A stretch of 64,000 bases of DNA from an uncultured delta proteobacterium (GCA_963737265.1 CAVTRY010000018.1:128001-192000); one strand, 5' to 3'; positions 5,886 through 31,214 are shown, numbered from the stretch's first letter. Notes: generated by a model not told the origin, from the letters alone. Translations and numbers: made by a program.

Positions 5886-6924
5886 ATGCCCATCAAGAAG
5901 TCCGAGCTCTATTCCCGCCTCTGGCAGTCCTGCGACGAGTTGCGGGGCGGGATGGATGCCAGCGAGTACAAGAACTACATCCTGGTCCTGCTGTTCATCA
6001 AGTACGTCAGCGACAAGTTCGCGGGCCAGCCGTACGCCGAAATTATCCAGGACATCGAAGGCCACCTGCAAGGCGGCATCCCGGCGGCCGAAGTGGACGC
6101 CGAAAGCGCCATGGCGCCGTACTGGATGGTATGCCCGAGACTGAAGAAGGCGCTCTTTGAAGGGCAGCGCAAGGGCTACTTCGACCTGAAGGTCGCCAAG
6201 GCCGACATCAAGACCACCATCTACGAGCACCCCGAGTTCGCCGATTTCATCGCCCAGATGAACGCCCACTTTGCCGTGTGGAAGAAGAAGAGCACAGGCA
6301 TGCTCAAGGCGCTCAAGCCCGGCTTCCACCCCAAAGAGCTGATCGCCAAGCTGTCCGAAGGCCTGCTCGACCACTACGCCGACCGGCCGCTGGTCGATCC
6401 CTATGACATCTACCAGCACCTGATGGGCTACTGGGCGCAGACCATGCAGGACGATGCCTACCTGGTCGCCGACGAAGGGTCGGACGGTGGGTGGCACGCG
6501 GAAACAAGGTCAACGCGGCCAACGTGGCCAAGCGCCTGAAGGAAATCAAAGGCGACAAAGGCGCCGCCAGCGACAAGGATGCGAAGGCCGAAGCCGAGGC
6601 CCTAGAAGCCTGGCTGGAAGCGAACACCAAGGAAGTTGATCTCAAGAAGTGGACGCCGAGGCCAGCTTGGACGCCAAGGCCTACGCCCAGTATCCCAAGC
6701 TTGGTGAGGCCGACGTGAAATCCCTGGTGGTGGACGACAAGTGGATGGCCGCGCTGGAAGCCGTGATCCACGGCGAAACCGACCGAATCAGCCAGCAGCT
6801 CACCCAGCGGGTGAAAGAGCTGGCCGAACGCTACGAAACTCCTCTGCCCGACCTGAACAAGCGCGTGGCCGAGCTCGAGGCCAAGGTCAACCGACACCTT
6901 GCCCACATGGGGTTCCAGGCATGA
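5886..6924 (+). pseudogene. hsdM: Type I restriction-modification methyltransferase HsdM, internally deleted and frameshifted
   Basis: HsdM N-terminus MPIKKSELYSRLWQSCDELRGGMDASEYK jumps near 6045 to C-terminal sequence (DIEGHLQGGIP...YDIYQHLMGYW, LVVDDKWM...ELAERYETPL). No NPP[FY] or SAM-binding motif remains. Confidence 0.85.
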
Positions 6925-7964
6925 CAGACCTGATCGTTGGCCCTGACTACGCCGCCTGGCTGGTGGACCTGAAGTCGCGCATTCAGCGTGCGCGGACGCA
7001 GGCCGCCCTGGCCGTGAACCAAGAGCTGGTGCGTCTTTACCGCCACCTCGGCAGCGAGATCCTGGCCCGGCAGGACCGCCAAGGATGGGGCGCCAAGGTC
7101 ATCGATCGCCTGGCCGTGGACCTGCGCGCCGCCTTCCCCGACATGCGGGGCCTGTCCGCCTCGAACCTCAAATACATGAGGTTCTTCGCCGAGCTTTGCC
7201 CGGTGCTTCAAATTGGTCAGCAACCTGCTGACCAATTGCCCTGGTTCCACATCGTGACGCTTCTGACCAAGGTCACCGACCCTGACCAACGCGAATGGTA
7301 CGCCATCCGCGCCGTCGAACGTGCCTGGTCCCGCGCCGCCCTGCAAGCCAACATCAAGGCCCAGCTCCATCTGCGTGAAGGCGTGGCGGTGACTAATTTC
7401 GCCCAACGCCTGCCCGAGCCCCAAGTCCAGCTTGCCCAGGAGATTCTGAAAGATCCCTACCACTTCGATTTCCTGGGTCTTGGCGACGAGGCCCACGAAA
7501 GGGACATCGAGAGCGCCCTGGTCCGCCACATCACCCGCTTCCTGCTGGAGCTGGGGGCAGGGTTCGCCTTCGTCGGCCGCCAGCAGCGCATCGAAGTGAA
7601 CGGCGACGAGTTCTTCATCGACCTGCTCTTCTATCACGTACGCCTCAAGCGCTACGTGGTGGTGGAATTGAAGGCCGGAGCCTTCGCGCCCGAGCACGCG
7701 GGCCAACTGAATTTCTACCTGGCCGCCGTGGATGCGCAGCTCAAAGCCGCCGACGACAACCCCACCATCGGGCTTCTCCTGTGCAAGACCAAGAACCAAC
7801 TGGTCGCAGAGTACGCCCTTTCCGGCATCGCCAAGCCCATGGGCGTGGCCGAATACCAACTCCTGCGCGCCCTGCCCGAGCCATTGGACACCAGTCTGCC
7901 CACCGTCGAGGAATTGGAAGAAGAGCTGAACGCGGGCCTCACGGATGGAGGCAAAGATGAGTGA
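6921..7964 (+). CDS. YhcG/DUF1016 family PD-(D/E)XK nuclease
   Basis: GWGAKVIDRLAVDL, KDPYHFDFL, FLLELGAGFAFVGRQ, IDLLFYH, VVVELK and GQLNFYL are hallmark DUF1016 motifs; ATG overlaps the hsdM stop. Confidence 0.92.
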   Translation: MTDLIVGPDYAAWLVDLKSRIQRARTQAALAVNQELVRLYRHLGSEILARQDRQGWGAKVIDRLAVDLRAAFPDMRGLSASNLKYMRFFAELCPVLQIGQQPADQLPWFHIVTLLTKVTDPDQREWYAIRAVERAWSRAALQANIKAQLHLREGVAVTNFAQRLPEPQVQLAQEILKDPYHFDFLGLGDEAHERDIESALVRHITRFLLELGAGFAFVGRQQRIEVNGDEFFIDLLFYHVRLKRYVVVELKAGAFAPEHAGQLNFYLAAVDAQLKAADDNPTIGLLLCKTKNQLVAEYALSGIAKPMGVAEYQLLRALPEPLDTSLPTVEELEEELNAGLTDGGKDE

Positions 7965-7996
7965 GGTCAGACGTGGCTACAAGCAGACGGAGGTGG
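7957..7996 (+). pseudogene. Stub of type I specificity subunit HsdS (first ~13 codons)
   Basis: MSEVRRGYKQTEV overlaps the yhcG-like stop and matches the common HsdS start GYKQTEVGxIP; similarity ends abruptly. Confidence 0.55.
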
Positions 7997-8112
7997 CGAG
8001 CTTTGCGCCGGACGCGCCAATGGTCGACCTCGGGTCTTCGACCTGCACGCGGCGATCGGCCCGGCTTGGGCAATGGGCAATTTTGGCACTACATTGCTTG
8101 TTCTTGGAATTT

Positions 8113-8130
8113 CCGTAGCACAACCGTTGC
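8113..8130 (+). promoter_or_regulatory. Degenerate Pho-box-like 11-bp direct repeat
   Basis: CCGTAGC-ACAA-CCGTTGC, positionally homologous to the motif at 15354. Confidence 0.35.
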
Positions 8131-8195
8131 CAAACGTTATCGATTCGCCCGCGAGAACTTCTGTACGGTCACGGCCGACCAGTAAGGAGGTCCCC

Positions 8196-11138
8196 ATGTT
8201 GCTCGACCGTCGCAGATTCTCTCTATCGCAATTGCTCCCGCTCGGAGCCCTCACAACCCTTGCCTTCTTCGCGGGCTGTGGCCAGCACGAAGCCCCGGCC
8301 AACTCGGGTAGCGCCGACTTGACCGTCAAGACGCTGCTCAGCGCCGCTAACATCACCGGCGTAACCGCCACGATTTCCGGCTCTGCCCTCTCCACGCCCC
8401 GATCCGTCGCGCTCTCTTCGAGCACCACCGGGACCTGGGGCGCTCTCATCGGAGCGCTCCCAGCCGGCACCGGCTACGTCTTCACCGTCAGCGCCACCGA
8501 CGTAAATAGCGTCGCGCAGTACACCGGCGTCGCCTCCAACGTCACCATCGTCCAGAATGTGGTGACCAGTGTTGTCATCACTGCCCAGCAGGCCACGGCC
8601 CCGACGCCTTTCCAGAACTCGGTCCCCGTGATCGACGCGTTCGTCCTCTCGTCGAGCAACGTCGCTCCGGGCGCCACCATCGCCGCCACGGTCACGGCCC
8701 ACGATCCGGACGCTGGCGACACCCTCACTTACGCCTGGACGGTAAGTCCCAAGGGTAGTGTCTTCTCGGCCCCGACCGCCGTGACCACCAACTGGACCGC
8801 GCCCACCACGGCGGGCGCGTACACACTCACCATCGCCGTCACCGATAGCCACGGCGCGACCGCCTCGGCCTCGGTCGTGGTGAACGTCTCGACCAGCAAT
8901 GGCGTGGGCCAAGCCTCCCTTACCGTCAACCTCAACACCTGGCCGGTGGTGACCAACATGGTCGCGGCCCCGAGCTACCTTGTCCTTGGCCAGCCGACCA
9001 AGCTGACCGCGGTTGCCACCGATGCGGACGGCGACCCGCTGACCTACGCCTGGACCAGCACCTGCGCCGCCGGCACGTTCAGCGCCGCCATGGCCGCCGC
9101 CACCACCTTCACCTTGCCTGCTGGCGACACCGACGCTAGCTGCTCGATCAGCGTCGCCGTCAACGACGGCCGCGGCGGCTCGACCAGCGGTAAGGCCACA
9201 CTGCCCGTCGGCGCTCCTGCTGCGGTCAGCTCTCCGGTCTTCACGGGCAGCTCGCAGTCGCCCAACGTCGTGACCCCTGGCATGAGCGTGACCTTCCAGG
9301 TCACCGCCTCGGATCCGCAATCGAGCGCTCTCACCTTCACCTGGATTGCTCTCTCGGGCACCGTCTCGGGCCAGACCAACACCGCCAATTCGTCGCAGAT
9401 CACCTGGACTGCCCCCGCCGGCGCCTCGTCGAGCTCCACGGTATCCGCCGTGGCGACCGACGCCCTCGGCATGAGCGTTGAGCTCGACTTCGCAGTCACG
9501 GCTTGCGCGGCCGCATTGAAGTGGCCCTACCTCATCTACCCCGGCCAGAACTCGACGATGCAAGTGCTCTGGCAGGACAACAACGCCGGCGAGTCGAATA
9601 GCGTTCGCTGGGGCACCGACACGAGCTACGCCATGGGGAGCGCGGTCGCGCCCGAGTTCGGCGACAAGCAACACGCGTACACCATCACGGGCCTGCAGCC
9701 GGACACGAAATACTACTACCAGGTGACCGACACGGCCGTCACTGCCTGCGTCTACGGCCAGGGCTCGTTCACCACCGCGCCCGCGGACACCGCGACCTCC
9801 ATCCGCTTCATCGGCCAGGGCGACTCCCGCAGCCAGCCGTTCGCGCTTGACAACCTGATGCAGGCGCTCACCACGTTCTACGCCCAGCCCGGGAACGCGG
9901 ACTACCAGCGCTTTGCCATCCACAACGGCGACTGGGTGAGCACCGACGGCGAGAGCTACTGGACGAGCCAGTGGTTCGATCCCACCAAGAAGGACATCGT
10001 CGCGTACACGGCCAATACGCCCATCGACGGCGTCAAGGGCAACCACGACAACGCCTCGGGCTACAGCACCACCTTCCCGAAGTACTTCCCCTTCCCGTAT
10101 CCGGCCGCGACGCTCAAGGCTGGGACCGGGCCCGGGACCAGCATGCCTGCCACCTATAACAACCTCTACTGGTCTGTGGACTACGGTCCGGTCCACATCA
10201 CGTTCGTCGACGAGTACTCGGCCTTCACGCCTGGCTCGCAGCAGTACACCTGGCTCACGAACGACCTCGCCACCACCACGAAGCCTTGGAAGCTCCTCGT
10301 CTACCACGAGCCGGCGTACTCCGCGGGCTCGGACGGCGACAACACCTCCGCCCAAACCTACCTCGAGCCTCTCATCACCCAGTACAACGTGGACCTCGTC
10401 TTCGCCGGTCACAGCCACAACTACGCTCGCACGGGTGCCTATAACCTCACCCAGGCCCAGGGCGACCAGATTGCGCTCAACGTCCCGCACATCACCAGCG
10501 GCGGTGGTGGCGCGCCGGTCTATCAGCCCGACATGACCAACACCCACAGCAAGTACCCGCACGTCATCACGGCGTGGCCTGCCTTCGAGTTCGTGACCTT
10601 CGACGTGAAGCCGACCACTCTCACCATGACCGCCTACCAGGTCAACAACGTGAGCTTGACGGCTATCATGACGCCGGCCGCGCTGACCCTCTCGAAGATT
10701 GAGACCATCGTGCTCAATCACTTCAGCAACGTCACGCCGCAGTTTACCGCGACGACGAGCGCGTTCGTGCAGGATGCAACGACCGGCCACTATATGGGCA
10801 AACTGATCCTCACCAACACGGGTGCGGATGTTGCCGGAACCGTCGACGTCGTGATGGACGGCATCCTGAACCTCGCCGGGCTCGGTACGCCGGACAACGA
10901 GTACAGCACCACGAGCCCCCCGCTCGCCTCGATGATCGCCCAGAACACCGGATTGGCGACGACCGTCACGGTGGTCGGTGCGACCGGCTCTAACAACGGT
11001 GAGCCGATGATCCGTGCCACCAGCAGCGGCGTTTTGGCTGGCGGCCAGATCGTCGTCCCGCTGGAGCTCGACATGGGGACTGGTGGCATCGATCCGAACG
11101 CCACCAGCTTCTTCACCCCAGTGATCCTGAAGGAGTAA
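8196..11138 (+). CDS. Lipoprotein metallophosphoesterase (purple acid phosphatase-like) with Ig/PKD-like repeats and FN3 domain
   Basis: AAGGAGG RBS and FFAGC lipobox. Repeats AHDPDAGDTLTYAW, ATDADGDPLTYAW and ASDPQSSALTFTW, then FN3 (ITGLQPDTKYYYQV). Catalytic motifs GDS, NGDWV, GNHD, YHEP and GHSHNY. Confidence 0.9.
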   Translation: MLLDRRRFSLSQLLPLGALTTLAFFAGCGQHEAPANSGSADLTVKTLLSAANITGVTATISGSALSTPRSVALSSSTTGTWGALIGALPAGTGYVFTVSATDVNSVAQYTGVASNVTIVQNVVTSVVITAQQATAPTPFQNSVPVIDAFVLSSSNVAPGATIAATVTAHDPDAGDTLTYAWTVSPKGSVFSAPTAVTTNWTAPTTAGAYTLTIAVTDSHGATASASVVVNVSTSNGVGQASLTVNLNTWPVVTNMVAAPSYLVLGQPTKLTAVATDADGDPLTYAWTSTCAAGTFSAAMAAATTFTLPAGDTDASCSISVAVNDGRGGSTSGKATLPVGAPAAVSSPVFTGSSQSPNVVTPGMSVTFQVTASDPQSSALTFTWIALSGTVSGQTNTANSSQITWTAPAGASSSSTVSAVATDALGMSVELDFAVTACAAALKWPYLIYPGQNSTMQVLWQDNNAGESNSVRWGTDTSYAMGSAVAPEFGDKQHAYTITGLQPDTKYYYQVTDTAVTACVYGQGSFTTAPADTATSIRFIGQGDSRSQPFALDNLMQALTTFYAQPGNADYQRFAIHNGDWVSTDGESYWTSQWFDPTKKDIVAYTANTPIDGVKGNHDNASGYSTTFPKYFPFPYPAATLKAGTGPGTSMPATYNNLYWSVDYGPVHITFVDEYSAFTPGSQQYTWLTNDLATTTKPWKLLVYHEPAYSAGSDGDNTSAQTYLEPLITQYNVDLVFAGHSHNYARTGAYNLTQAQGDQIALNVPHITSGGGGAPVYQPDMTNTHSKYPHVITAWPAFEFVTFDVKPTTLTMTAYQVNNVSLTAIMTPAALTLSKIETIVLNHFSNVTPQFTATTSAFVQDATTGHYMGKLILTNTGADVAGTVDVVMDGILNLAGLGTPDNEYSTTSPPLASMIAQNTGLATTVTVVGATGSNNGEPMIRATSSGVLAGGQIVVPLELDMGTGGIDPNATSFFTPVILKE

Positions 11139-11326: not shown

Positions 11327-12058
11327 ATGAAGATAACGATCTGCACATCCCTGGCCCTCCATCTCCTGCTGCTTTCCGCGGCCGATAAGATGGGAAGCGC
11401 CTCGGCCCCCGCCAAACCGACGGCGATCGAGGTCGATCTGGGCAAACCCTCGATGATCGAAGTTGAGCTGGGGGGCGGCCGCAAAGCCGTGCAGCCGGTC
11501 CGCGACTGCGGGAAGAGTGTGCACCTGAGACGAAAGCAGCCGGCGCACCGCCTGACCAAGACGGCCCGTCTGGAAGCAAGGCCGGCTCCGCCCTTGCCCG
11601 CGCCGCCATCTTCTGTTGCAGAGACAGCAGTGAAGGAGGCCGCGGCACCTGTCTCCTCTCCCATATCTGAGTTGGTGTCCGGAGAGTCAACCGCGACGGT
11701 CGACAACGTCATCCGCTCCGCCGGGGTAGCACCGTCTGCCGGTTCCGAAAGCGGGAAGCCGGCCAGCCCTGGGACAAGCGAAGGGAACGGCATGCTTCCC
11801 TTCGTGATCAGCGGCCCCCCGCCTGCCTACCCGCAAGATGCCCGTTCCAAGGGGTTCACCGGAAAGGTGAAGGTGAAGGTCTTGATATCCGAGCAGGGGA
11901 CTGTCGAGGATACGGTCATTGCCCAGAGCTCCGGGTATGCAAGCCTCGACGAGGCGGCAAGGCTTGCTTTGCGCCACTGGCACTTCAGTCCGGCGTACAG
12001 AGGTGGCCATGCAGTTGCCGCCTGGGTCGTCGTGCCGGTGACGTTCAAGCTGGCGTGA
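11327..12058 (+). CDS. tonB: Energy transducer TonB
   Basis: N-terminal SLALH anchor, Pro-rich linker and C-terminal YPQDAR...GKVKVKVLISEQG...SSGYASLDEAA...WHFSPA. Confidence 0.88.
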   Translation: MKITICTSLALHLLLLSAADKMGSASAPAKPTAIEVDLGKPSMIEVELGGGRKAVQPVRDCGKSVHLRRKQPAHRLTKTARLEARPAPPLPAPPSSVAETAVKEAAAPVSSPISELVSGESTATVDNVIRSAGVAPSAGSESGKPASPGTSEGNGMLPFVISGPPPAYPQDARSKGFTGKVKVKVLISEQGTVEDTVIAQSSGYASLDEAARLALRHWHFSPAYRGGHAVAAWVVVPVTFKLA

Positions 12059-12208
12059 CCGGCCCTCTCAATCGACGCAAGATCCATCCCAACAGAAAGG
12101 TAGTTTTGAAATGATAGTGTCATCCAGGCCAACGCGGGTAGGGGGAACCAGAGTCTCGATTCTCGTTGCGCTGCTGAGCCTAGGCCAAGCAGTCTCGGTT
12201 GCATCTGC

Positions 12209-12450
12209 GGAAACCGAGCCTGCAGCGGCCTCTCCGCCGCCAAGTGATGCGCCTGCAACGGAGTCCGCGGAAACCTCGCCGGCAGCGACCTCTCCGCCGC
12301 CAAGTGATGCGCCTGCAACGGAGTCCGCGAAAACCTCGCCTGCAGCGGCCTCTTCGCCGCCAAGTGAGGTGCCTGCAACGGAATCCGCCAAACCCCTGCC
12401 TCCAGCGCCCTCCCCGCCGTCAGGTGATGCGCCTGCAACGGAGCTCGCGG
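12209..12450 (+). repeat. Four tandem 60-bp coding repeats (PAAASPPPSDAPATESAETS-like)
   Basis: ccgccgccaagtgatgcgcctgcaacggagtccgcg recurs with a 60-nt period. Confidence 0.9.
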
Positions 12451-13320
12451 AGGTTTTGGTGACGGACAAGAAAGAGACCACGCCGGCGCCCAGGCCAGGA
12501 AGCGCGGAGAGCGGATATCTGAGCACCTCCGCAATGCTCGGAACACTCGGCAATGCAAAGCTCCTGGATACCCCATTTACAGTCACGTCTTTTCCACAAC
12601 CACAACCTTCGGCATGTCGAATCCGGGCTATTCTCCCGACCCGAACGTCACGATTTCCAAAAGCCCTCCCTATCACACAACCCAGAAGGCGTTACGCCAG
12701 TCCACGCTGCTGACCGATCAGCTTGCCCTGGGTCAGAAGTGGTCCCTGCTTGCAGGACTCTCCTACGTGAGCATCGCTGACAAGCAGTATTCAAACACGA
12801 CCGGCGCGTTGACATCGGATTACCACCAAGGAAGAGTTACTCCGGCCGCGGCGCTCATGTTCAAACCCGTTCCAAAGGTGACCGCCTATGTGTCGTATAT
12901 CCAGGCTCTGGAAGAAGGTCCCATCGCGCCCAGCACGGCCGCCAATGCCGGTGAAATCCTCAAACCCTTCCTGAGCGATCAGGTGGAGATGGGGCTGAAG
13001 ACGCTCATCGGCGGGATGAACCTGAATGCCGCTGTTTACCGTATTGAAAGGGCCAATGCATACACCGACCCCGACACCAGCATTGTCACCGAGGACGGGC
13101 GGGAGGTTCACATGGGCGGAGAACTCTCCTTCTCCGGCAAAGTCACCGACAATTTCACCCTGCTGGGAGGATTCTCGATCCTGAGAGCGACGATTGAAAA
13201 GGCCACCGATCCGGGGCTTGAGGACAAGTCCCCGCAGGCCGTCCCGAGAACCCTGGCGAGATTGTATGGAGAATACGCCCTGCCCGTCGTTCCCGGCCTT
13301 ACCGTGACAGGGGGCATGTC

Positions 13321-13509
13321 CAGGGCCATCGCATCATCCTACATCGACGCAGGATCCATCAGAGTCTCGGCCATTTCTGGAAGGTTTTCCCCTGGGGTCG
13401 GTGCGCGCGCCGGTGTGCAGGCAGGTTCGGCAGCGCGCACGGGCGCGGAGACCGGCATAACTATCGGCATCTCCGCAAGATCACTTACAATTTAGATGCG
13501 TTGGCCCTG
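13321..13509. mobile_element. 189-bp MITE with 15-bp terminal inverted repeats and 10-bp target-site duplication
   Basis: Left CAGGGCCATCGCATC and right GATGCGTTGGCCCTG match at 14/15. GGGGCATGTC is duplicated at 13311-13320 and 13510-13519. Removing the element restores TGGMSYTGEEW. Confidence 0.9.
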
Positions 13510-13769
13510 GGGGCATGTCCTACACAGGCGAAGAATGGGTCAACGATGCGAATACTCTCTCGATTCCCTATGTGCTCACCGGAGACTTGGGATTGCGCTA
13601 CCAGAGGAAAGTGATGGGGAAGGACACCGCGTTGCGGTTCTTGGTGAACAACATCGCCGGTGAAAACTATTGGACCACCAAGGGAGGCGGGATGCTGTAT
13701 CTCGGAAGTCCACGCATCATTGCCATGTCGGCTACAGTGAATCTCTAGCCTGAAAGCGGGAGGAATGGG

Positions 13770-15238
13770 ATGCGCATGCGCCTTGTTTTGGCAGTGGTGG
13801 CTCTGCTGGCCTCCGTCTGGTTCCTGAGTGACGGCAGACAGGTTTCCGCGGCGGACAGAGGCAAGGCCGCCGCCGGGAAGAGGCTCGTTCTGTCGCTGCA
13901 CGCCAGCGCCCACAATCGCGAGGACGTCTTCGTGTCGGCACTGATCGATGCGGGGGCAGCTCGCAGCGTCTACGTCGAATACGCCGACAAGACTCTCGGC
14001 CGCGCGCAACTGCTCGAACCAGGCATGCTGAACGCCGCGGCACGCGGTTCCGGGAAGCGGGAATTGCATTTCGTGGCGCCGAAGATGGCAAAGGGAGAAA
14101 CGGCCAGGGTTGTCGCCCTGCTGTCGGAACAACCCATCGAAGGACGGACGTATGTCTGGAACGGCGAGCCTCGCCAGAGCCGTCGCCTGTCCTGCGGGCA
14201 GTGCCATCAGGGGTCGACCATACCGACGGCCGAGCAATTGCGACAGGAAGGAGAAATGCTTGAAGAAGACGGGCAAAGTTCCGCCGCTGGATACGTCCCG
14301 CATCCTGCCGACCTCCAAAGGAGAAGATTCCCGATGGCACGAAAAGCTGGGCAGGTATCAGTCCTCGGCCTGCTGGGAATGCCATGCCCGCCACATGGTC
14401 GAGTACGAGTTCGGCCAATCGCTCGAACAGAGATTTTCCCTGGGCACCCGACCCGGCGAAGCTTGGCGAAGCCCCGATCGTCCGCAGCGTCTTCCACACC
14501 GTCTTTCACGTGCTCGATGGGCGAAGGGCTACGCACCCGCTGGCGGGCGAGGACGCTGGCGGCGATAGTCCAGGCGCGTGGAAGATCCAGTACGGCTTCG
14601 AACGAGCAAGTGTGGGTGCCGCGCGCTCGACCGATGTGCTCCAGCAACACGTACGGACACTGTCCGAAGAAGCGGGCAAGTTCATCGGCCGGCACAATAT
14701 TCGGATTGATTGGATCGGCCATTTGGCCGATAAACGCGTGACGATAGCCCGCGAGGAGCGGCAGGTGACGGTGAAGGATTACCGGGCCCGCAACCATAGC
14801 ATTGCGATGTGGATCGATTTCGCTTCCACGCTGCACCCGGCTGAAGGCCCGGTCAAACTGGACGGCGCCGCCGGTGCGGCGGGATTCCGCTTCGTTCCTT
14901 CCCTGGACGCCGGCACGGTGCCCGAGAAGCGTGAATCGGCCGCATGGCGAGCGATCACGTTCGTCTCCGAGCGATCGACGTACACGGCCGTCTGCATTAG
15001 TCAATCGGGCAATCCGCCCCCGCCCAAGCAATCGGCGCAACCGGCCGGACCTTCGGGAGCGGCGGCTCGCACTGGCGCGCCGCCGGAGATCGGATTCCGC
15101 TTCTCGGCGGAATGCACTGCCCAGAAACCGCTGCAGGTCCACTACCGGCTGTGGATCCAGGGAGGCCGGATGCCAACCGAGGAGATCGCGTCACTGGCGA
15201 ACGATCTTCTGGAACCGATCCGAATCGAAGTCGAGTAA
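13770..15238 (+). pseudogene. Secreted protein with two CxxCH motifs and a C-terminal DUF6807/PmoA-family-like domain, two apparent frameshifts
   Basis: Signal peptide, CGQCH (13770 frame), CWECH (14110 frame), then IDWIG...EERQVTV...IDFASTL...VKLDG...AGFRF (14384 frame). Confidence 0.5.
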
Positions 15239-15605: not shown

Positions 15606-15617
15606 CTGAAAGTGGCC

Positions 15618-16769
15618 ATGCGTACCTTCTTCATCCTCCTATCAATCCTCTGCGTGCTGTCGCCAGCGTCCCGCGCTGCACCTGCTGCGGCGGACGATCC
15701 GGCCGTGACCGCCCTGAAGCAGGCAGCGCAGCAGGCCTATCTCGAAAAGCGCTTTGACCAGGCGATCGCCCTCGACCTCGAAATCGCGCAACACCCCGAG
15801 AGCCATGCGCGCCGCTACGCCGTGCAGATGTTGGGGACGCTGTACGAAGACAACGTCGTCGATGTCGCCGCCGCTATTCGCTGGGATCGGGAATTCCTGG
15901 AGAAGTACGCCGACGTGCGCCAGGTAGCCTTCTACCGGCAGAAGATCGCCACGCTCGAGCAGGTGCTTCCGCAGAAGGACGCCTTCGCAAGTTACCAGAG
16001 GATTCGCTTCGCCAACCAGGGCGACGAGGTGCTGGTGAAGCAGCTCGAGGCCCTGCTGAAAGAGCATCCCGATTTTCTCCTCAAGGACAAGATCCAGGCA
16101 GAGCTGGGCTACGCCTACGCCCGCATGGACAAGCACAAGCAGAGTTATCTCGCGTTTCAGGCGCTGTCACAGAGCGGAAAGCCAATGTCGGCCGAGCACA
16201 TGAAGGCCTACCAGGCGGCCGCCCTGCATTTCAACGAGACCTCGAGCTGGGGCTTCGTCGTGTTGGGCGTCGTGCTGGGGCTGTGGGGCGTGGTGCTCCT
16301 CGGCAAGCCGTGGAGGCGGATCACCCGACGCGCGCTCTGGAAGCTTCTCGCCATTGCTTTGGCGTGGGTGGCGCTGAACGTGGCCCGCATGCCAGGCTTC
16401 TACACCATCGAGACAACGGGCTATCCGGTCGTCATTCCCGACACAGTCGTCTACACGGGCATCGCGCTCAACCTGACCGTTATCGTGTGGCTCTTCCTAT
16501 TGAGACGTGGATCGTTCTGGGAGCGCTGGCCGAAGATCGTGCGCCTCGTCGCCAGCCCGATTCTCGTGGTCGTGATGACCGCGTCCGTCCTCTATCTGCT
16601 CGTGATCCGGCAGCCGAACGGGCCGGAGATCGTCGACGTCTTCCCTATGGTGTACCATCGCTGGGTCGAGGATATGAGACGTCCTGCCGGTCCGGTCGTG
16701 CCCAGCGCCGAAGCGCACGAAATGAAAGCCGCGGGCGTGACCGGCGACCGTCCCGACCATGCGCATTGA
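15618..16769 (+). CDS. Membrane protein with periplasmic TPR-like domain and ~4 C-terminal TM helices
   Basis: Signal peptide, helical repeats (QAYLEKRFDQAI, ELGYAYARMDKHKQSYLAF) and four hydrophobic segments. Confidence 0.75.
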   Translation: MRTFFILLSILCVLSPASRAAPAAADDPAVTALKQAAQQAYLEKRFDQAIALDLEIAQHPESHARRYAVQMLGTLYEDNVVDVAAAIRWDREFLEKYADVRQVAFYRQKIATLEQVLPQKDAFASYQRIRFANQGDEVLVKQLEALLKEHPDFLLKDKIQAELGYAYARMDKHKQSYLAFQALSQSGKPMSAEHMKAYQAAALHFNETSSWGFVVLGVVLGLWGVVLLGKPWRRITRRALWKLLAIALAWVALNVARMPGFYTIETTGYPVVIPDTVVYTGIALNLTVIVWLFLLRRGSFWERWPKIVRLVASPILVVVMTASVLYLLVIRQPNGPEIVDVFPMVYHRWVEDMRRPAGPVVPSAEAHEMKAAGVTGDRPDHAH

Positions 16770-16788
16770 GGAGTAATAAGGAGCAACG

Positions 16789-17007
16789 ATGACGGGAAAA
16801 ATCCTGAAAGTGAAGACCGGCTACAACCCGAACTCGAGCAGCATCGGGGTCGACATGGTCGCCTTCTTCACCATTGGTGCGGGGATGACGGTGCTCTTCA
16901 ACCTTATCGCGACCATCATCGATGGCATCCAGGCCAAGCAGCGTGCGCGACCGGGCGAGGACAAGCAAGGCACGACGCAAGCGACGACGGAGGCGAAGCC
17001 GGCATGA
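16789..17007 (+). CDS. 72-aa peptide with GYNPNSSS motif and one TM helix; putative radical SAM substrate
   Basis: AAGGAG-like RBS, and its stop overlaps the ATG of the rSAM gene (ATGA). Sequence MTGKILKVKTGYNPNSSSIG followed by a hydrophobic helix and a charged tail. Confidence 0.75.
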   Translation: MTGKILKVKTGYNPNSSSIGVDMVAFFTIGAGMTVLFNLIATIIDGIQAKQRARPGEDKQGTTQATTEAKPA

Positions 17008-18158
17008 GCACGCTCCGCCATCGCTTCGAATCCTTTGGCGGCATCCTGGCCCTGGAAGATCCGCCGATGCTCGTGCACGTGGACCGGGACTTCATGCGCA
17101 GCCTTGGCCATTCCGCCTGCTCGGCCTGGGAAGAGTCGGAGACAGGGCTTCTCAGCGCGCCGCTCGAAGTTCACCTCTCGGTGACGAACGCCTGTTCGCA
17201 GGGCTGCGGCCACTGCTACATGGACTCGGGGCGGAACGATGCCGGCGAACTGTCATCGGCGGAGCTCCGGCGAGCCATCGACCTGCTCGCGGACATGGGC
17301 GTGTTCCACGTTGCGCTCGGGGGCGGAGAGGCGCTGGAGCGGCCCGACCTTTTCGATCTCGCCGCGCATGTGCGGGCACGCGGCATGGTCCCCAATTTGA
17401 CCACCAATGGCGCTCTTCTGACCCGGGAGACCGCCGAGCGATGCCGTGTCTTCGGTCAGGTCAACGTCAGCATCGACTCCCTCGACGGGGGCGCGCAGGC
17501 CGGCCCGGCCGCGCGGCTAGCCGCGGTGGATCTCCTGCGGGAAGCAGGGATCCGCGTCGGCATCAATTGCGTGGTGACGCGAGAGGGTCTCGATGGGCTG
17601 GCGAACCTCATTGCGTTCGCGAAGGAGCGAGGGCTCGTCGATATGGAGCTTCTCCGGCTCAAGCCCTCAGGGCGTGGAAAGAAGGACTACTTCGAGCGGC
17701 GACTGACGCGGGCTCAGAACGAGAAGTTTTTTCCGTTCATCCGGGACCTGTCCTTGTTGCACGGCAGCTTCCCGGTGAAGATCGATTGCTCGTTCGTTCC
17801 GATGTTCTGCTGGCACCGACCGGACAAGAGCCTCATGGAGCAATTCTCGGTCTACGGGTGCGAGGCCGGTAATGTCCTCGTCGGGGTGCGTTCCGACGGC
17901 AGGTTTGCCGGCTGCTCCTTTCTGTCCGGCGAGGAATCCATCTTCGAATTGCCGGGGCTTTGGCGGACGTCGGAGCACCTGACCCGCCTGCGCGGCTGGA
18001 TCGAGCGCGCGCCCGAACCGTGCCGATCCTGCGACTATTTGGACATCTGCAAGGGGGGCTGCCGCGCGGTGGCCGCATTCGTCGTCGGCGATGCCTTCGC
18101 TCCCGATCCCGAGTGTCCGTTCGCGGTGACGATGCGCGAGCGCGGCGTGGGAGCGTGA
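17004..18158 (+). CDS. Radical SAM/SPASM domain enzyme (PqqE/MftC-like subgroup)
   Basis: CSQGCGHC, GGGE and TTNG motifs. SPASM cysteines in GCEAG, GCSF, CRSCDYLDICKGGC and DPEC. Confidence 0.93.
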   Translation: MSTLRHRFESFGGILALEDPPMLVHVDRDFMRSLGHSACSAWEESETGLLSAPLEVHLSVTNACSQGCGHCYMDSGRNDAGELSSAELRRAIDLLADMGVFHVALGGGEALERPDLFDLAAHVRARGMVPNLTTNGALLTRETAERCRVFGQVNVSIDSLDGGAQAGPAARLAAVDLLREAGIRVGINCVVTREGLDGLANLIAFAKERGLVDMELLRLKPSGRGKKDYFERRLTRAQNEKFFPFIRDLSLLHGSFPVKIDCSFVPMFCWHRPDKSLMEQFSVYGCEAGNVLVGVRSDGRFAGCSFLSGEESIFELPGLWRTSEHLTRLRGWIERAPEPCRSCDYLDICKGGCRAVAAFVVGDAFAPDPECPFAVTMRERGVGA

Positions 18159-19439
18159 GCGTGCGCAGACCACGGGTTGCGGCCGTTGCGGTCTTGCTGG
18201 CGGTGCTGCTGCCGACAGCAGGCGCACCTGCATTCGCGCACGATTTGCCCATGGGAGGATCGCGCTGGAGCTTCGGTCGCAATCGGATCGTCGCCAACAT
18301 CGATCTCGGCCCCTCGCTGTTGCAGGCCATCAAGGGTATGAAGGAGTTGCGCGATCCAGTCGATCTAGTCGAGGGCCTGTCGGACGAGCAGATGCACCAA
18401 GTGGTGACCGAGATCCTCCAGCCGTATCTCGATGAGAAGCTGTCGGTCACCGAGGACGGCAAGGCGTACCCGGTGAAGGTCGATAGGCTGGTGAATAGCG
18501 GGAACGTCACCACGATCTGGATCTCGGTCGAGGGGATCCCACTCGACCTGGGGAGGCCATTCACCATCGATTACAGGCTGCTCTTCGACGAGACCGAGAA
18601 CGCGCACATCAACCTCGCCTACGGATACCTGTCCGAGGCCACCGGAGACGCTCTGAAGTCGGTGTTCGACTTCTCGCCACCCGCGATGCAATACACGTTC
18701 GAGTCGTCGGCGCACGCCTGGACGGTGATCCCCTCGGGCGCCGCCAAGATCGGGGCCAGGGCGGGCATGCAGGCCACCGCGACGCCAAGACCGGCCGTGG
18801 CCAAACCTGCCGTGGGCGTCGTGGCGGCGGTGCCGGGGGCACCCGTGTCGCCTCGCTCGATGTTGGAGGGAGATGCTCGCCAATGTAGGCCGTTTCGTCC
18901 TGCTTGGCATCGAGCACATCCTGACTGGGTACGACCACATCGCGTTCCTCGTGGCGCTTGTGGTCGTCGCCCCGTCGTTCAAAGCCGTCCTGCCCATCAT
19001 CACCGCTTTCACGGCAGCCCACAGCATCACACTGCTCCTGTCGGCCCTGCGTGTGGTCAGCCTTGACTCCAGGCTGGTCGAGTCGGCCATCGCTGTTTCC
19101 ATCTGCTACGTCGCCGTCGAGAACCTGTTTCGGAAGAAGGCCACGCGCCGCTGGCTCGTGGCTTTCTGCTTCGGGCTCGTCCACGGCTTCGGGTTCGCGA
19201 GCGTCCTGCAGAACCTGATCGTCGGGAGGGCGAATCTCGTCAGCTCGGTGGTCTCGTTCAACGTCGGCGTGGAGCTCGGGCAGCTCATGATCTTCGCCGC
19301 CCTGCTCCCATTGCTGCGCTTCCTCGCCGCGCTCATCCAGCCCCGGAAGATCACCATCGCCGCCTCGGCTGCCATCGGCCTTTTGGGGTTCATCTGGGTC
19401 CTTGAGCGGGGCTTCGACTTGAGGCTCCTGCGGCTGTGA
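18155..19439 (+). pseudogene. HupE/UreJ-family membrane protein with N-terminal periplasmic domain, one frameshift near 18863
   Basis: Signal peptide ending AFA-HD. C-terminal GIEHILTGYDHIAFL, TAFTAAHSITL, FGLVHGFGFA and FNVGVELGQ. Deleting one T in atgttggaggg joins the two ORFs; probably intact in vivo. Confidence 0.85.
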
Positions 19440-28868: not shown

Positions 28869-30369
28869 TTGAAGCCGGTCACCGACGCCCAAGTGAGGCG
28901 TTTGATGGAAGAGATGAGCAAGATTGGAAAAGTAGGCCAGGCCGCCATGAAGGCGGGCATGGACCGGAAGACAGGGCGGCGATACATCGCTGCGGGCAAG
29001 CTACCGTCGGAGCTACGGCAGCCGCGGTGGTGGCGGACGCGCCCTGACGCGTTCGCCGAGGACTGGCCAGCCGTGGCCAAGTTGCTGGAGGAAACGCCTG
29101 GGCTGGAGGCTCAGACGGTGCTGGAGCTGCTGGAGGCGAAGCAGCCAGGGCGGTACAACGAGAGCCATCTTCGGACAATGCAGCGGCGAATCCGTCGCTG
29201 GCGGGCCGAGCATGGTCCTGCGCGTGAGATTTGGTTCACGCAGGCGCATCGGCCCGGTGAAGCCGCGCAAACCGACTTCACGTCGACGGCGGAGCTTGGT
29301 GTGACGATCGTGGGCCAGCTATTTGTGCACCTTTTGTGCGTGACGGTGCTGCCGTACTCGAACTGGCAATGGGCGACCGCGTGTCTGTCGGAGTCTCTGG
29401 CAGCGCTTCGGCGAGGGATCCAGTCGGCGCTGTTCCAGCTTGGGCGGGTGCCGCGATACCACCAAACCGACCACTCGACGGCGGCGACACATCAGATCGC
29501 TCGCGATGCGGAAGATCGCACTTTCAACGATGAATACAAGGCGGTCATGCGGCACCTCGGAATGGAGCCACGAACTACAGCCGTCGGGGCCAAGGAACAA
29601 AACGGCGATGTGGAGGCCAGCAACGGCGCGCTCAAGCGTCGGCTTGAACAAGCGTTGCTGGTGCGTGGCAGCCGCGACTTCGCGGACCAAGACGACTACG
29701 AACGCTTCGTAGCCAAGGTGGTCCGCAAAGCCAACGCTTCGCGAGGCCCGCGCGTCGCCGAGGAGATCGAAGCCATGCGGCCGCTGGTGGTGGAGCGTTT
29801 GCCGGAGTACGCAGAAATGACGGCACCTGTGGCGTCGACGAGCACCATCCGGGTCAAGTCGTGCGCCTACTCGGTGCCGTCGAGGCTGATCGGCGCACGG
29901 GTGAGAGTCCGCGTGTTCGAGCACCGAATCGAGGTGTACTACGCCGACAACTTGGAATTGGCCTGCGACAGGCTGCGAGGCAAGACCGCGCGCATCGACT
30001 ACCGGCACGTCATCTGGTCTTTGGTGCGCAAGCCGGGCGCGTTTTCTCGCTACGTCTACCGAGAAGAGCTGTTTCCAAGCGTGACTTTCAGGCGGGCATA
30101 CGACGCGATCCAGGCGACCAAGCCTGGAATCAAAGGCGACGTTGAATACCTGCGCATTCTTCACCTGGCCGCCAGCACGATGGAAGCCGATGTCGAGCAA
30201 GCGCTCACGACTCTGCTTGCCGATGGGACCATCTTGACGGCGGATGCAACCAAGAAGAGATGCACACAGGCGACGGACAGTACCTATCCACCGAGCGTCC
30301 CCGCGCTCGAAGCACCGCTGGTCGATCTCCGCGTCCTACGACCTGCTCCTCGAACAGGTGGCATCATGA
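28869..30369 (+). CDS. istA: IS21 transposase IstA
   Basis: WRTRPDAF, HRPGEAAQTDFT, QTDHSTAA, NGDVEA, YSVPSRLIG and IDYRHVIWSLVRKPGAF. The natural end VDLASYDLLLEQVAS* is displaced by one extra C near 30330. Confidence 0.9.
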
Positions 30370-31214
30370 CCAACGTCTCCGTAGACACGGTCAAGCCGAG
30401 CGCGCTCGACGCTCTGCTGGTGCTTCTGCGCGCGCTCAAGCTGCCTGCCTTCACCCGGCACGCCGAGGAGATCGCGATCAAGGCCAGCCGCGAGGGGTGG
30501 ACCTTCAGCCAATACCTCCAGCACCTGGCCGAACTGGAAATCGAAGAGCGCCGAACCCGTCGCATCGATCGCGCGCTTCGCGATTCGGACCTTCCCACGG
30601 AGAAAACCCTGGCCACCCTGGAACGTGGTCGGCTGTCACCCAAGGTGATGAAGCAGATGGCGAGCCTGTGTGAGGGTGGCTTTGTCGAACGTGGGGAGAA
30701 CCTGCTCGTCTTCGGACTGCCCGGCCGAGGCAAAAGTCACGTTGTGGCTGCCATCGGCCACGAACTCATCCGGCGCGGCTACCGGGTCCTCTTCACGCCG
30801 ACCTTCGCGCTTGTCCAGAGGCTGCTGGCCGCCAAGCGCGACCTTCGCCTGGAACGAGAACTGGCCGCGCTCGACATCTATCACGCCGTGATCCTCGACG
30901 ACATCGGCTACGTCCAGCAGAGCCGCGATGAAATGGAGGTCCTTTTCACCTTCCTGGCCGAGCGGTACGAACGCAAGAGCGTCCTCATCACCAGCAACCT
31001 GGTCTTCAGCGATTGGATCCGCATTTTCAAGGATCCCATGACCACCGCCGCCGCCATCGACCGACTGGTCCACCACGCGGTCATCCTTGAGATGACCGGC
31101 CCCAGCTACCGCAGCGAAGAAGCACGAAAGAGAGGCGTCACCACCCCAGCGACAACTACGACAACTACCGATCAACCAACGACAACTACCCCCGACAACA
31201 ATGGGGCGATGTAA
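30366..31214 (+). CDS. istB: IS21 helper ATPase IstB
   Basis: Walker A GLPGRGKSH, Walker B VILDDIGY, LITSN and AAIDRLVHH. Confidence 0.93.
   Translation: MTNVSVDTVKPSALDALLVLLRALKLPAFTRHAEEIAIKASREGWTFSQYLQHLAELEIEERRTRRIDRALRDSDLPTEKTLATLERGRLSPKVMKQMASLCEGGFVERGENLLVFGLPGRGKSHVVAAIGHELIRRGYRVLFTPTFALVQRLLAAKRDLRLERELAALDIYHAVILDDIGYVQQSRDEMEVLFTFLAERYERKSVLITSNLVFSDWIRIFKDPMTTAAAIDRLVHHAVILEMTGPSYRSEEARKRGVTTPATTTTTTDQPTTTTPDNNGAM

Follow-up and report, generated by a model that had tools for sequence, protein, structure and literature searches.

Radical S-adenosylmethionine (SAM) enzymes with a SPASM domain have repeatedly yielded new chemistry or cofactors when paired with a short peptide: PQQ, mycofactocin, formylglycine and sactipeptides. 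MftC and PqqE act on Tyr, and their partners MftA and PqqA are small invariant peptides that lead to a cell-retained product and to no antibiotic. In the QhpD/QhpC pair, the SPASM enzyme modifies a small subunit that later becomes part of the periplasmic quinohemoprotein amine dehydrogenase complex. The streptide maturase SuiB (StrB) is encoded beside its precursor, the short peptide SuiA. The target motif of anaerobic sulfatase-maturating enzymes (anSMEs; AtsB, anSMEcpe) in sulfatases is C/S-x-P/A-x-R. In PMC10114670, SPASM enzymes are described as oxidising Ser or Cys to formylglycine, and anSMEs as tolerating either residue at the target site. Here, a four-gene cassette was analysed in a 64,000-nucleotide (nt) stretch of DNA from an uncultured delta proteobacterium (GCA_963737265.1 CAVTRY010000018.1:128001-192000; the whole stretch is called the window). 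The cassette encodes a TPR-like membrane protein, a peptide of 72 amino acids (aa), a radical SAM/SPASM enzyme and a HupE-type protein. The peptide is probably the dedicated partner of the enzyme and most likely its substrate, and the two would then form a new peptide-modifying system acting on an N-[S/C]-S motif.

The cassette lies on the + strand of the window and consists of the following features:

15612..16769, + strand: TPR-like membrane protein of 385 aa (GTG start, 15612) or 383 aa (ATG start, 15618)
16789..17007, + strand: 72-aa peptide with a basic N-terminal strand (K4-K9), the motif, a hydrophobic helix (residues ~21-45) and a charged tail
16819..16848, + strand: peptide motif G11-Y-N-P-N15-S16-S17-S18-I-G20, its conservation counted in 106 fragments
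17004..18158, + strand: radical SAM/SPASM enzyme, 384 aa (Pfam Radical_SAM, 1.4e-17)
18155..18865, + strand: N-terminal domain of the HupE-type protein (signal peptide and soluble part), GTG start, no Pfam family
18873..19439, + strand: HupE/UreJ_2 membrane domain, 188 aa from ATG 18873 (PF13795, 165 bits)

The four tightly coupled genes reported in a preliminary description of this locus were present, with the junctions as described there. The TPR-like gene is separated from the peptide gene by a 19-nt gap, which contains AAGGAG 5 nt before the peptide ATG. The peptide stop and the enzyme start share an ATGA overlap, and the enzyme stop is overlapped by the GTG at 18155 (GTGA). The part that did not stand was the fourth gene as one open frame (see below). 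In Pfam, the TPR-like protein, the peptide and the fourth gene's N-terminal domain were without a match, and none of the four cassette proteins was named by NCBIfam.

The conservation of the peptide and the size of its family are far beyond chance. Homologues were found at E ≤ 0.01 (n = 68), and in these K9-G20 (KTGYNPNSSSIG), G3 and L6 were invariant, while the remainder had drifted to ~35% identity. At E ≤ 0.001, a profile search of 1.84 billion proteins retrieved 840 representative clusters (50% identity), of which 341 reached 1e-10; the best 150 spanned 51-153 aa. For a wider motif count, distant members were added, which gave 106 unique peptide fragments. G11, N15, S17 and G20 were each present in 106/106, S18 in 103, P14 in 97 and N13 in 89. 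Position 16 was Ser in 89 fragments and Cys in 17, and position 12 was Tyr (63), Phe (13), His (10), Leu (8) or another residue. The Ser type reads G-[YFLMV]-N-P-N-S-S-S-x-G and the Cys type G-[HRP]-[GS]-[AP]-N-C-S-[SA]-x-G. The motif is located at the extreme N-terminus of the peptide, with few residues at most before it. The GYNPNSSS motif noticed earlier thus held as a conserved core, except for Tyr12, which is not invariant and is dispensable; the earlier focus on NSSS agrees with the aligned invariance of N15, S/C16 and S17. Chemistry centred on Tyr, as for PQQ, mycofactocin or cyclophanes, was considered as the conserved function and rejected, as position 12 can be Y, F, H, L or others.

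Linkage of peptide and enzyme was followed from both sides. On the peptide side, one genome per species was scanned (45 loci; gene content by tblastn). Of these loci, 39 had the enzyme, 41 a TPR membrane protein, 37 a metallophosphoesterase, 27 HupE and 9 a ResA-like thioredoxin. In the enzyme-less loci (L041, L047, L048, L049, L050, L052), the contig ends near the peptide or inside the gene that normally precedes the enzyme gene. On the enzyme side, 301 genomes of the window's phylum were sampled. The enzyme family was found at E ≤ 1e-60 in 47 of them (38-51% identity, the window's own genome excluded), and the 46 other genomes held 49 places with the enzyme. The peptide was adjacent in 26 and fused in frame in 12; the fetched DNA of the remaining 11 (10 genomes) was without peptide, and all 10 genomes encode it elsewhere. 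Where the context could be recognised, these distant peptides stood beside PAP-N/TPR, thioredoxin and metallophosphoesterase genes. The peptide profile matched 57/301 genomes, all 47 enzyme genomes included, and in the remaining 10 the enzyme was found by profile at E ≤ 1e-82, directly adjoining the peptide in nine. Both families were therefore present in 57/57 peptide genomes, and no enzyme-positive genome lacked the peptide. The other 244/301 genomes had neither at these thresholds, the enzyme profile not having been run on those 244. The peptide gene and the family enzyme each occur once in the window's genome. The preliminary description had set conservation of the motif, and its tie to this enzyme clade, as a test in advance, and the counts (39/45 loci, 57/57 peptide genomes) came out in its favour.

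Natural fusions were found in 12 genomes, where a single open reading frame (ORF) runs from the motif through the helix and an acidic or Gly/Pro linker into the enzyme. One fusion had only ~7 residues between helix and enzyme. By their sequences, the 12 fusions argue for physical association of peptide and enzyme.

The loci were of two types. In type 1 (30 loci, the window's kind), the order was phosphatase, TPR membrane protein, peptide and enzyme, and the HupE protein was nearby; in 29/30, the gene directly upstream of the peptide was that of the TPR membrane protein. Type 2 comprised 15 loci, mostly from Planctomycetota. In these, a PAP-N/TPR membrane protein and a protein of 276 aa precede peptide 1; next come a thioredoxin, a membrane-anchored metallophosphoesterase (763 aa) and peptide 2, and then a TPR membrane protein, the enzyme and a ~200-aa protein. 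Each of the two peptide paralogues stood beside its own TPR membrane protein; they had the same motif and differed in their helices.

On a tree of 88 rows (FastTree), with two paralogues from the window's genome for comparison, the enzyme family came out as a single clade (support 99). Type 1 formed a clade (support 100), and all Cys16-type pairs fell into one clade (support 92). The Ser/Cys difference needs one change on this tree, and the fused or separate state needs two, with at least two fusion events. The titles of the metagenome-assembled genomes (MAGs) behind the 45 loci named Myxococcales/'delta proteobacterium', Nitrospirota/Thermodesulfovibrionales, Geobacter and kin, Korobacteraceae/Terriglobales (Acidobacteriota-type), Syntrophobacter, Planctomycetota, Fibrobacterota, Raymondbacteria and others. 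Type-1 enzymes were ~70% identical between MAGs titled as different phyla (L009-L038), and 38-51% identical to those of same-phylum genomes. Because identity is higher across phyla than within the phylum, the comparison suggests that the cassette has spread laterally, as a whole, among peat and soil anaerobes. One carrier is cultured, Geomesophilobacter sediminis Red875 (locus L038). Among bacteria of soil, peat and sediment the pair is widespread, and it is named by no curated model or paper found. Literature searches with the motif strings returned unrelated matches only, and no paper joining radical SAM/SPASM, metallophosphoesterase and precursor peptide was found; subscription journals and RadicalSAM.org were outside these searches.

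The enzyme matched the radical SAM family PF04055 with 64.9 bits (cut-off 29.5), and C64, C68 and C71 (CxxxCxxC) were invariant in 50 rows. C262, C286, C304, C340, C343, C349, C353 and C371 were likewise invariant in 50 members, which bears out the full SPASM Cys set described earlier. At E ≤ 0.01, the enzyme had no match to the SPASM model of Pfam itself. R7, E9 and G12 of an R-x-E-x-F-G-G stretch were common to 50 family members. Against NCBIfam, the best 25 of 49 matches were inspected, and all were far under cut-off: MftC (TIGR03962), 150.6 bits vs 265; NirJ2, 125.8 vs 500; GeoRSP, 116.3 vs 400; AhbD, 110.1 vs 500; NirJ, 108.4 vs 515; and PqqE (TIGR02109), 95.4 vs 381. AhbC scored 91, likewise under the NirJ/AhbC/AhbD cut-offs of 500-650. 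By these scores, the enzyme is in none of the curated families tested, and the view that it falls outside the characterised small-molecule families was upheld.

The AlphaFold2 (AF2) model of the enzyme had a mean predicted local confidence (pLDDT) of 94.3, with three N-terminal strands (5-9, 12-18, 21-27) followed by a short helix. In structure comparison (Foldseek and VIA-align), SuiB was closest (Z 31.5, root-mean-square deviation 3.3 over 362 residues, model range 1-373). SkfB, PqqE, CteB, anSMEcpe and ChlB came next, all of them modifiers of peptides or proteins; viperin, MoaA and other small-molecule enzymes had lower scores. The SPASM fold likeness to SuiB, PqqE, CteB and anSMEcpe was Z 23-31. 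The best solved relative by sequence was PqqE (6c8v, E 9.5e-15). As modelled, the enzyme most resembles peptide-modifying SPASM enzymes, SuiB first.

The likeness to each described system is partial. SuiB and SuiA share with the present pair a short peptide encoded beside the enzyme, and only the SuiB family and SkfB align from model residue 1. Unlike in that system, identity to SuiB is 21%, the motif has no Lys-Trp pair, the N-terminal element comprises ~50 residues without Pfam PqqD/RRE, and the partner, which carries a hydrophobic helix, is no secreted peptide. MftC was the best profile match and PqqE the best sequence match in the PDB. In contrast to them, Tyr12 is replaceable here, separate MftB or PqqD and mft or pqq genes were absent, and no MftA or MftB was found among the neighbours scanned. 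The anSMEs are, in PMC10114670, SPASM enzymes with auxiliary-cluster Cys residues that abstract a Cbeta hydrogen from a Ser or Cys target. A further likeness is that the target in their partner serves outside the cytoplasm. anSMEcpe aligned with the window enzyme model with Z 23.8 over model range 52-372, and the extra N-terminal sheet of the window enzyme lies outside this range. In addition, there is no sulfatase among the scanned neighbours, and N-[S/C]-S-S-x-G differs from the sulfatase motif. As for QhpD/QhpC, neither qhp genes nor a Cys-rich subunit or an amine dehydrogenase are found here; the partner enzyme would be a metallophosphoesterase, and a complex with it is conjectural.

Binding of the peptide by the enzyme is predicted. 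The complex score was 0.89 over three runs (0.88-0.90) vs 0.02 for the best of 3 controls. The score mark used was reached by 58/80 solved complexes and 2/110 mismatched pairs, counts that are approximate for this case, which was run with custom alignments and riding SAM and Fe-S ligands. The runs agreed in at least 81% of contacts, and the peptide pLDDT was at least 64. In the predicted complex, peptide residues 4-9 are paired with enzyme strand 21-27, and the lowest-error contacts are those of peptide 4-11 with enzyme 21-30 and 280-282. All of peptide 1-28 touches the enzyme, for the most part at residues of the barrel. Among the enzyme residues contacted are Y72, the glycine stretch 104-107, 150-154, 186/188, E215, K220, 257-263 and 304-306. 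Rows of the Ser16 type (39) and the Cys16 type (11) were split by two enzyme columns only, E215->Q and S263->A, and both residues are inside the predicted interface. In the AF2 model of a fusion (pLDDT 91), peptide strand 3-8 was confident (block pLDDT 87), and the motif and helix had values of 61-70.

The following mechanism is proposed. The basic peptide strand 4-9 would dock as an extra strand on the N-terminal three-strand sheet of the enzyme, so that the motif G11-x-x-x-N15-[S/C]16-S17-S18-x-G20 would lie against the barrel residues around SAM and the clusters. From this motif, a hydrogen would next be abstracted by the 5'-deoxyadenosyl radical; that the enzyme acts catalytically on the peptide is, in our judgement, probable. 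Residue 16 is the likeliest target, because it is the sole position alternating between Ser and Cys, and we regard it as a reasonable candidate, short of a probable one. Oxidation of this residue at Cbeta to formylglycine, as by anSMEs, can be put forward tentatively, and a short cross-link or an epimerisation would be other outcomes. The product would probably stay cell-bound through the hydrophobic helix, since no protease or exporter is conserved with the pair. Its partners there may be the TPR membrane protein and the purple-acid-phosphatase-like metallophosphoesterase, both of which are co-inherited with it, joined in the window's locus type by the HupE/UreJ_2 protein. What is unusual in this system is the nearly frozen N-terminal core across phyla, the trailing hydrophobic helix and the natural fusions of putative substrate and enzyme; tailoring and export genes are absent, and the phosphoesterase/TPR membrane context is constant. 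It offers a sharply defined experimental case, with one enzyme, one 20-residue motif and one candidate residue.

Several observations weigh against the peptide being the substrate in this manner. The anSME model was not among the best 25 of the 49 NCBIfam matches. PqqD, or the recognition element (RRE) of RiPPs (peptides synthesised by ribosomes and modified after translation), is a winged-helix domain of three strands and three helices, and the leader is bound as a fourth strand. None of five enzyme N-termini matched PqqD/RRE by Pfam at E ≤ 10, and the modelled N-terminus has three strands and one or two short helices in ~45 residues. The earlier comparison of this N-terminus with PqqD-like elements thus found no support in Pfam; the predicted three-strand sheet is paired with the peptide in the complex model. 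Part of the good complex score may reflect likeness to solved complexes of a similar kind (SuiB-SuiA, anSME-peptide, CteB, ChlB). The covariation of Ser/Cys16 with E215Q and S263A is consistency and not independent support, because the switch is a single event on the tree, and the tree was made by FastTree alone. A metallophosphoesterase was found within ~4 kb in 7/21 Cys-type loci only (tblastn). A permanent subunit, in place of a substrate that is turned over, would likewise account for the stoichiometric coupling and the fusions.

Topology belongs to the same side of the balance. The helix of the peptide has the look of a membrane-spanning one. The N-tail, however, is strongly basic (mean KR 4.2, DE 0.7; 78 peptides), and a membrane-spanning helix would put motif and enzyme on opposite sides. 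In the 12 fusions, the N-side had KR 39 and DE 9, and the 20 residues after the helix KR 36 and DE 47; the enzyme part of the fusions must be cytoplasmic. The peptide may be modified before it inserts; or else its helix may be monotopic, or enclosed by a partner, with motif and enzyme on the same side. As natural fusions place the enzyme after the helix, the membrane topology itself is doubtful. That the product stays in the membrane, and that it serves metal delivery, as the preliminary description had it, we infer at most, and its interpretation as a whole was partly supported.

The topology also leaves room for the peptide as a permanent subunit or tether of the enzyme instead of its substrate. 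The helix would hold the enzyme at the membrane or at the TPR protein, and the motif would shape or gate the active site. The true substrate would be elsewhere, for example the metallophosphoesterase before export (cf. anSME and sulfatase) or a small molecule. Such a role fits the translational coupling through ATGA, the single peptide gene and single family enzyme in the window's genome, and the metallophosphoesterase as a constant neighbour (37/45 loci). It also fits the 12 fusions, including the one with ~7-residue helix-enzyme spacing, as a substrate fused to its enzyme would allow one turnover only. It agrees less well with type-2 loci, where two same-motif peptide paralogues accompany one enzyme, or with the 10 genomes in which peptides are far from the enzyme and close to phosphatase genes, where a mere tether would be needless. 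The predicted complex, moreover, lays the motif on the barrel residues in a substrate-like manner. In six-frame motif scans, the motif was in no other frame or protein of the loci covered; therefore, the phosphatase does not carry it. Taken together, we consider a permanent subunit rather unlikely. A more far-reaching proposal is that the modified peptide is a new protein-derived cofactor or active-site piece, with Ser/Cys16 converted to formylglycine or a similar oxidised residue. The anchored peptide would then serve the TPR protein and the phosphatase, for example by binding a metal as ligand, by supplying a nucleophile in trans or by tethering covalently. We think this improbable; if true, it would be a new maturation route for a widespread class of bacterial phosphoesterases.

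A classical RiPP would have its core in the N-terminal motif, which would be modified, cut off and released as a secreted natural product or signal. A SPASM enzyme adjoining a short ORF, RiPP maturases as the nearest folds, and the predicted strand-to-sheet docking, similar to that of a leader on an RRE, are what one would expect of it. However, no protease or transporter family was conserved in either locus type, the extreme N-terminal motif leaves few residues at most ahead of it, and the core is invariant across phyla instead of hypervariable. It is also followed by a conserved hydrophobic helix, and enzyme fusions exist. We therefore hold a classical RiPP to be quite improbable, and the earlier statement that the locus is no classic RiPP, with no mft or pqq genes and no sulfatase among the neighbours scanned, was sustained. 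A tetrapyrrole or cofactor enzyme of the NirJ/AhbD/MoaA kind, with the short ORF as an unrelated conserved neighbour, is disfavoured and hardly credible: the NirJ2, AhbD, NirJ and MoaA models did match, but sub-threshold, the first three far under their cut-offs (125.8 vs 500, 110.1 vs 500, 108.4 vs 515). No heme d1 or alternative-heme genes were among the scanned neighbours, and the perfect genome-level co-occurrence with the peptide, as well as the fusions, would be left without a reason. The peptide as a dedicated partner and probable substrate of the enzyme is thus the reading that we prefer.

The phosphatase neighbourhood proposed earlier proved to be real synteny (37/45 peptide loci). 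In relatives, the metallophosphoesterase is directly upstream of the TPR gene, e.g. in locus L009 (1694-4768, then 4832). In the window, it is 4.4 kb from the cassette, with TonB, receptor fragments and DUF6807-like DNA in between, an insert absent in relatives:

8073..11138, + strand: metallophosphoesterase of 1021 aa, purple-acid-phosphatase-like (Pfam domains PKD/Big_9, Pur_ac_phosph_N, Metallophos)
11327-12058: TonB, between the phosphatase and the cassette
12111-12713, 12614-13495, 13515-13748: pieces of a TonB-dependent receptor, in three frames
13770-14741, 14384-15238: DUF6807-like gene, in two frames

The broken genes in 11327-15238 either are decayed or reflect assembly indel errors. 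Loci L009 and L012 had the phosphatase directly upstream and no insert of the 11327-15238 type. The window phosphatase keeps the GNHD and GHSH metal motifs and reads GDWVS in place of GDxxY, the Tyr-bearing motif of purple acid phosphatases. Judged by this residue, the protein may lack true tyrosinate-iron character. A link of the peptide to phosphatase function would fit the shared neighbourhood.

In the TPR-like protein, the N-terminus is signal-like, a soluble part is helical, and residues 210-335 contain some four hydrophobic segments (hydropathy). Its TPR label comes from its language-model (Atlas) neighbours, which were named TPR (0.96 and 0.94), and from the type-2 counterparts; the window protein itself, as said, had no Pfam or NCBIfam match. 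TPR_6 was found in 15% of members, and the type-2 counterpart matched TPR_2 with 24.9 bits, under the cut-off of 27.

The HupE-type gene is split in the window: the N-terminal domain runs from 18155, and the HupE part from 18873 in another frame. Relatives have one ORF of 422-500 aa (PF13795, 159-162 bits), and the window part, at 165 bits, was far above the PF13795 cut-off of 24.5. Compared with three relatives, the window has one extra base near 18861-18863, and a 99%-alike DNA contig of run X1 (single contig, depth 2.8) has one base missing at 18863. As the nearby TonB-dependent receptor and DUF6807 genes are likewise broken across frames, an assembly indel is the likeliest cause. At 18873, the separate HupE frame starts with an ATG for which relatives have ATC or CTC. 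Should the frame shift be real, the upstream GGAGGGAG and this ATG could allow a stand-alone HupE part. The association with HupE suggested earlier applied to type-1 loci (27/30) and did not extend to type 2 (0/15).

RNA-library contigs (runs X18-X20, three studies) were 90-99% alike to parts of all four genes. They are a weak hint of transcription in the source organism or its relatives, and may be DNA carry-over.

At type-2 locus L040, the 763-aa metallophosphoesterase (6689-8980) has a CxxC segment and a C-terminal multi-pass membrane domain with conserved Cys, and it adjoins the ResA-like thioredoxin. The type-2 locus hints at a thiol-redox relay tied to the phosphatase. Parts of this phosphatase were also considered as DsbD- or glutaredoxin-like; there was no Pfam match at E ≤ 1, GrxA (NCBIfam) was sub-threshold, and no claim is made.

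A conserved multi-pass membrane ORF of ~205 aa was observed after the enzyme in Nitrospirota/Geobacter-type loci (L018 7404-8021 and L031 7424-8035, 55% identity between both). Pfam assigns it to no family, and the window lacks it. Family F4 had no family match, and family F9, which is unrelated to the L018 ORF, had a weak DUF2950 match only.

IS21-type transposase and IstB ATPase are normally two genes. In the window, a single 781-aa ORF (28869-31214) joins IS21-type transposase parts (rve, Mu-transposase C) and an IstB ATPase domain.

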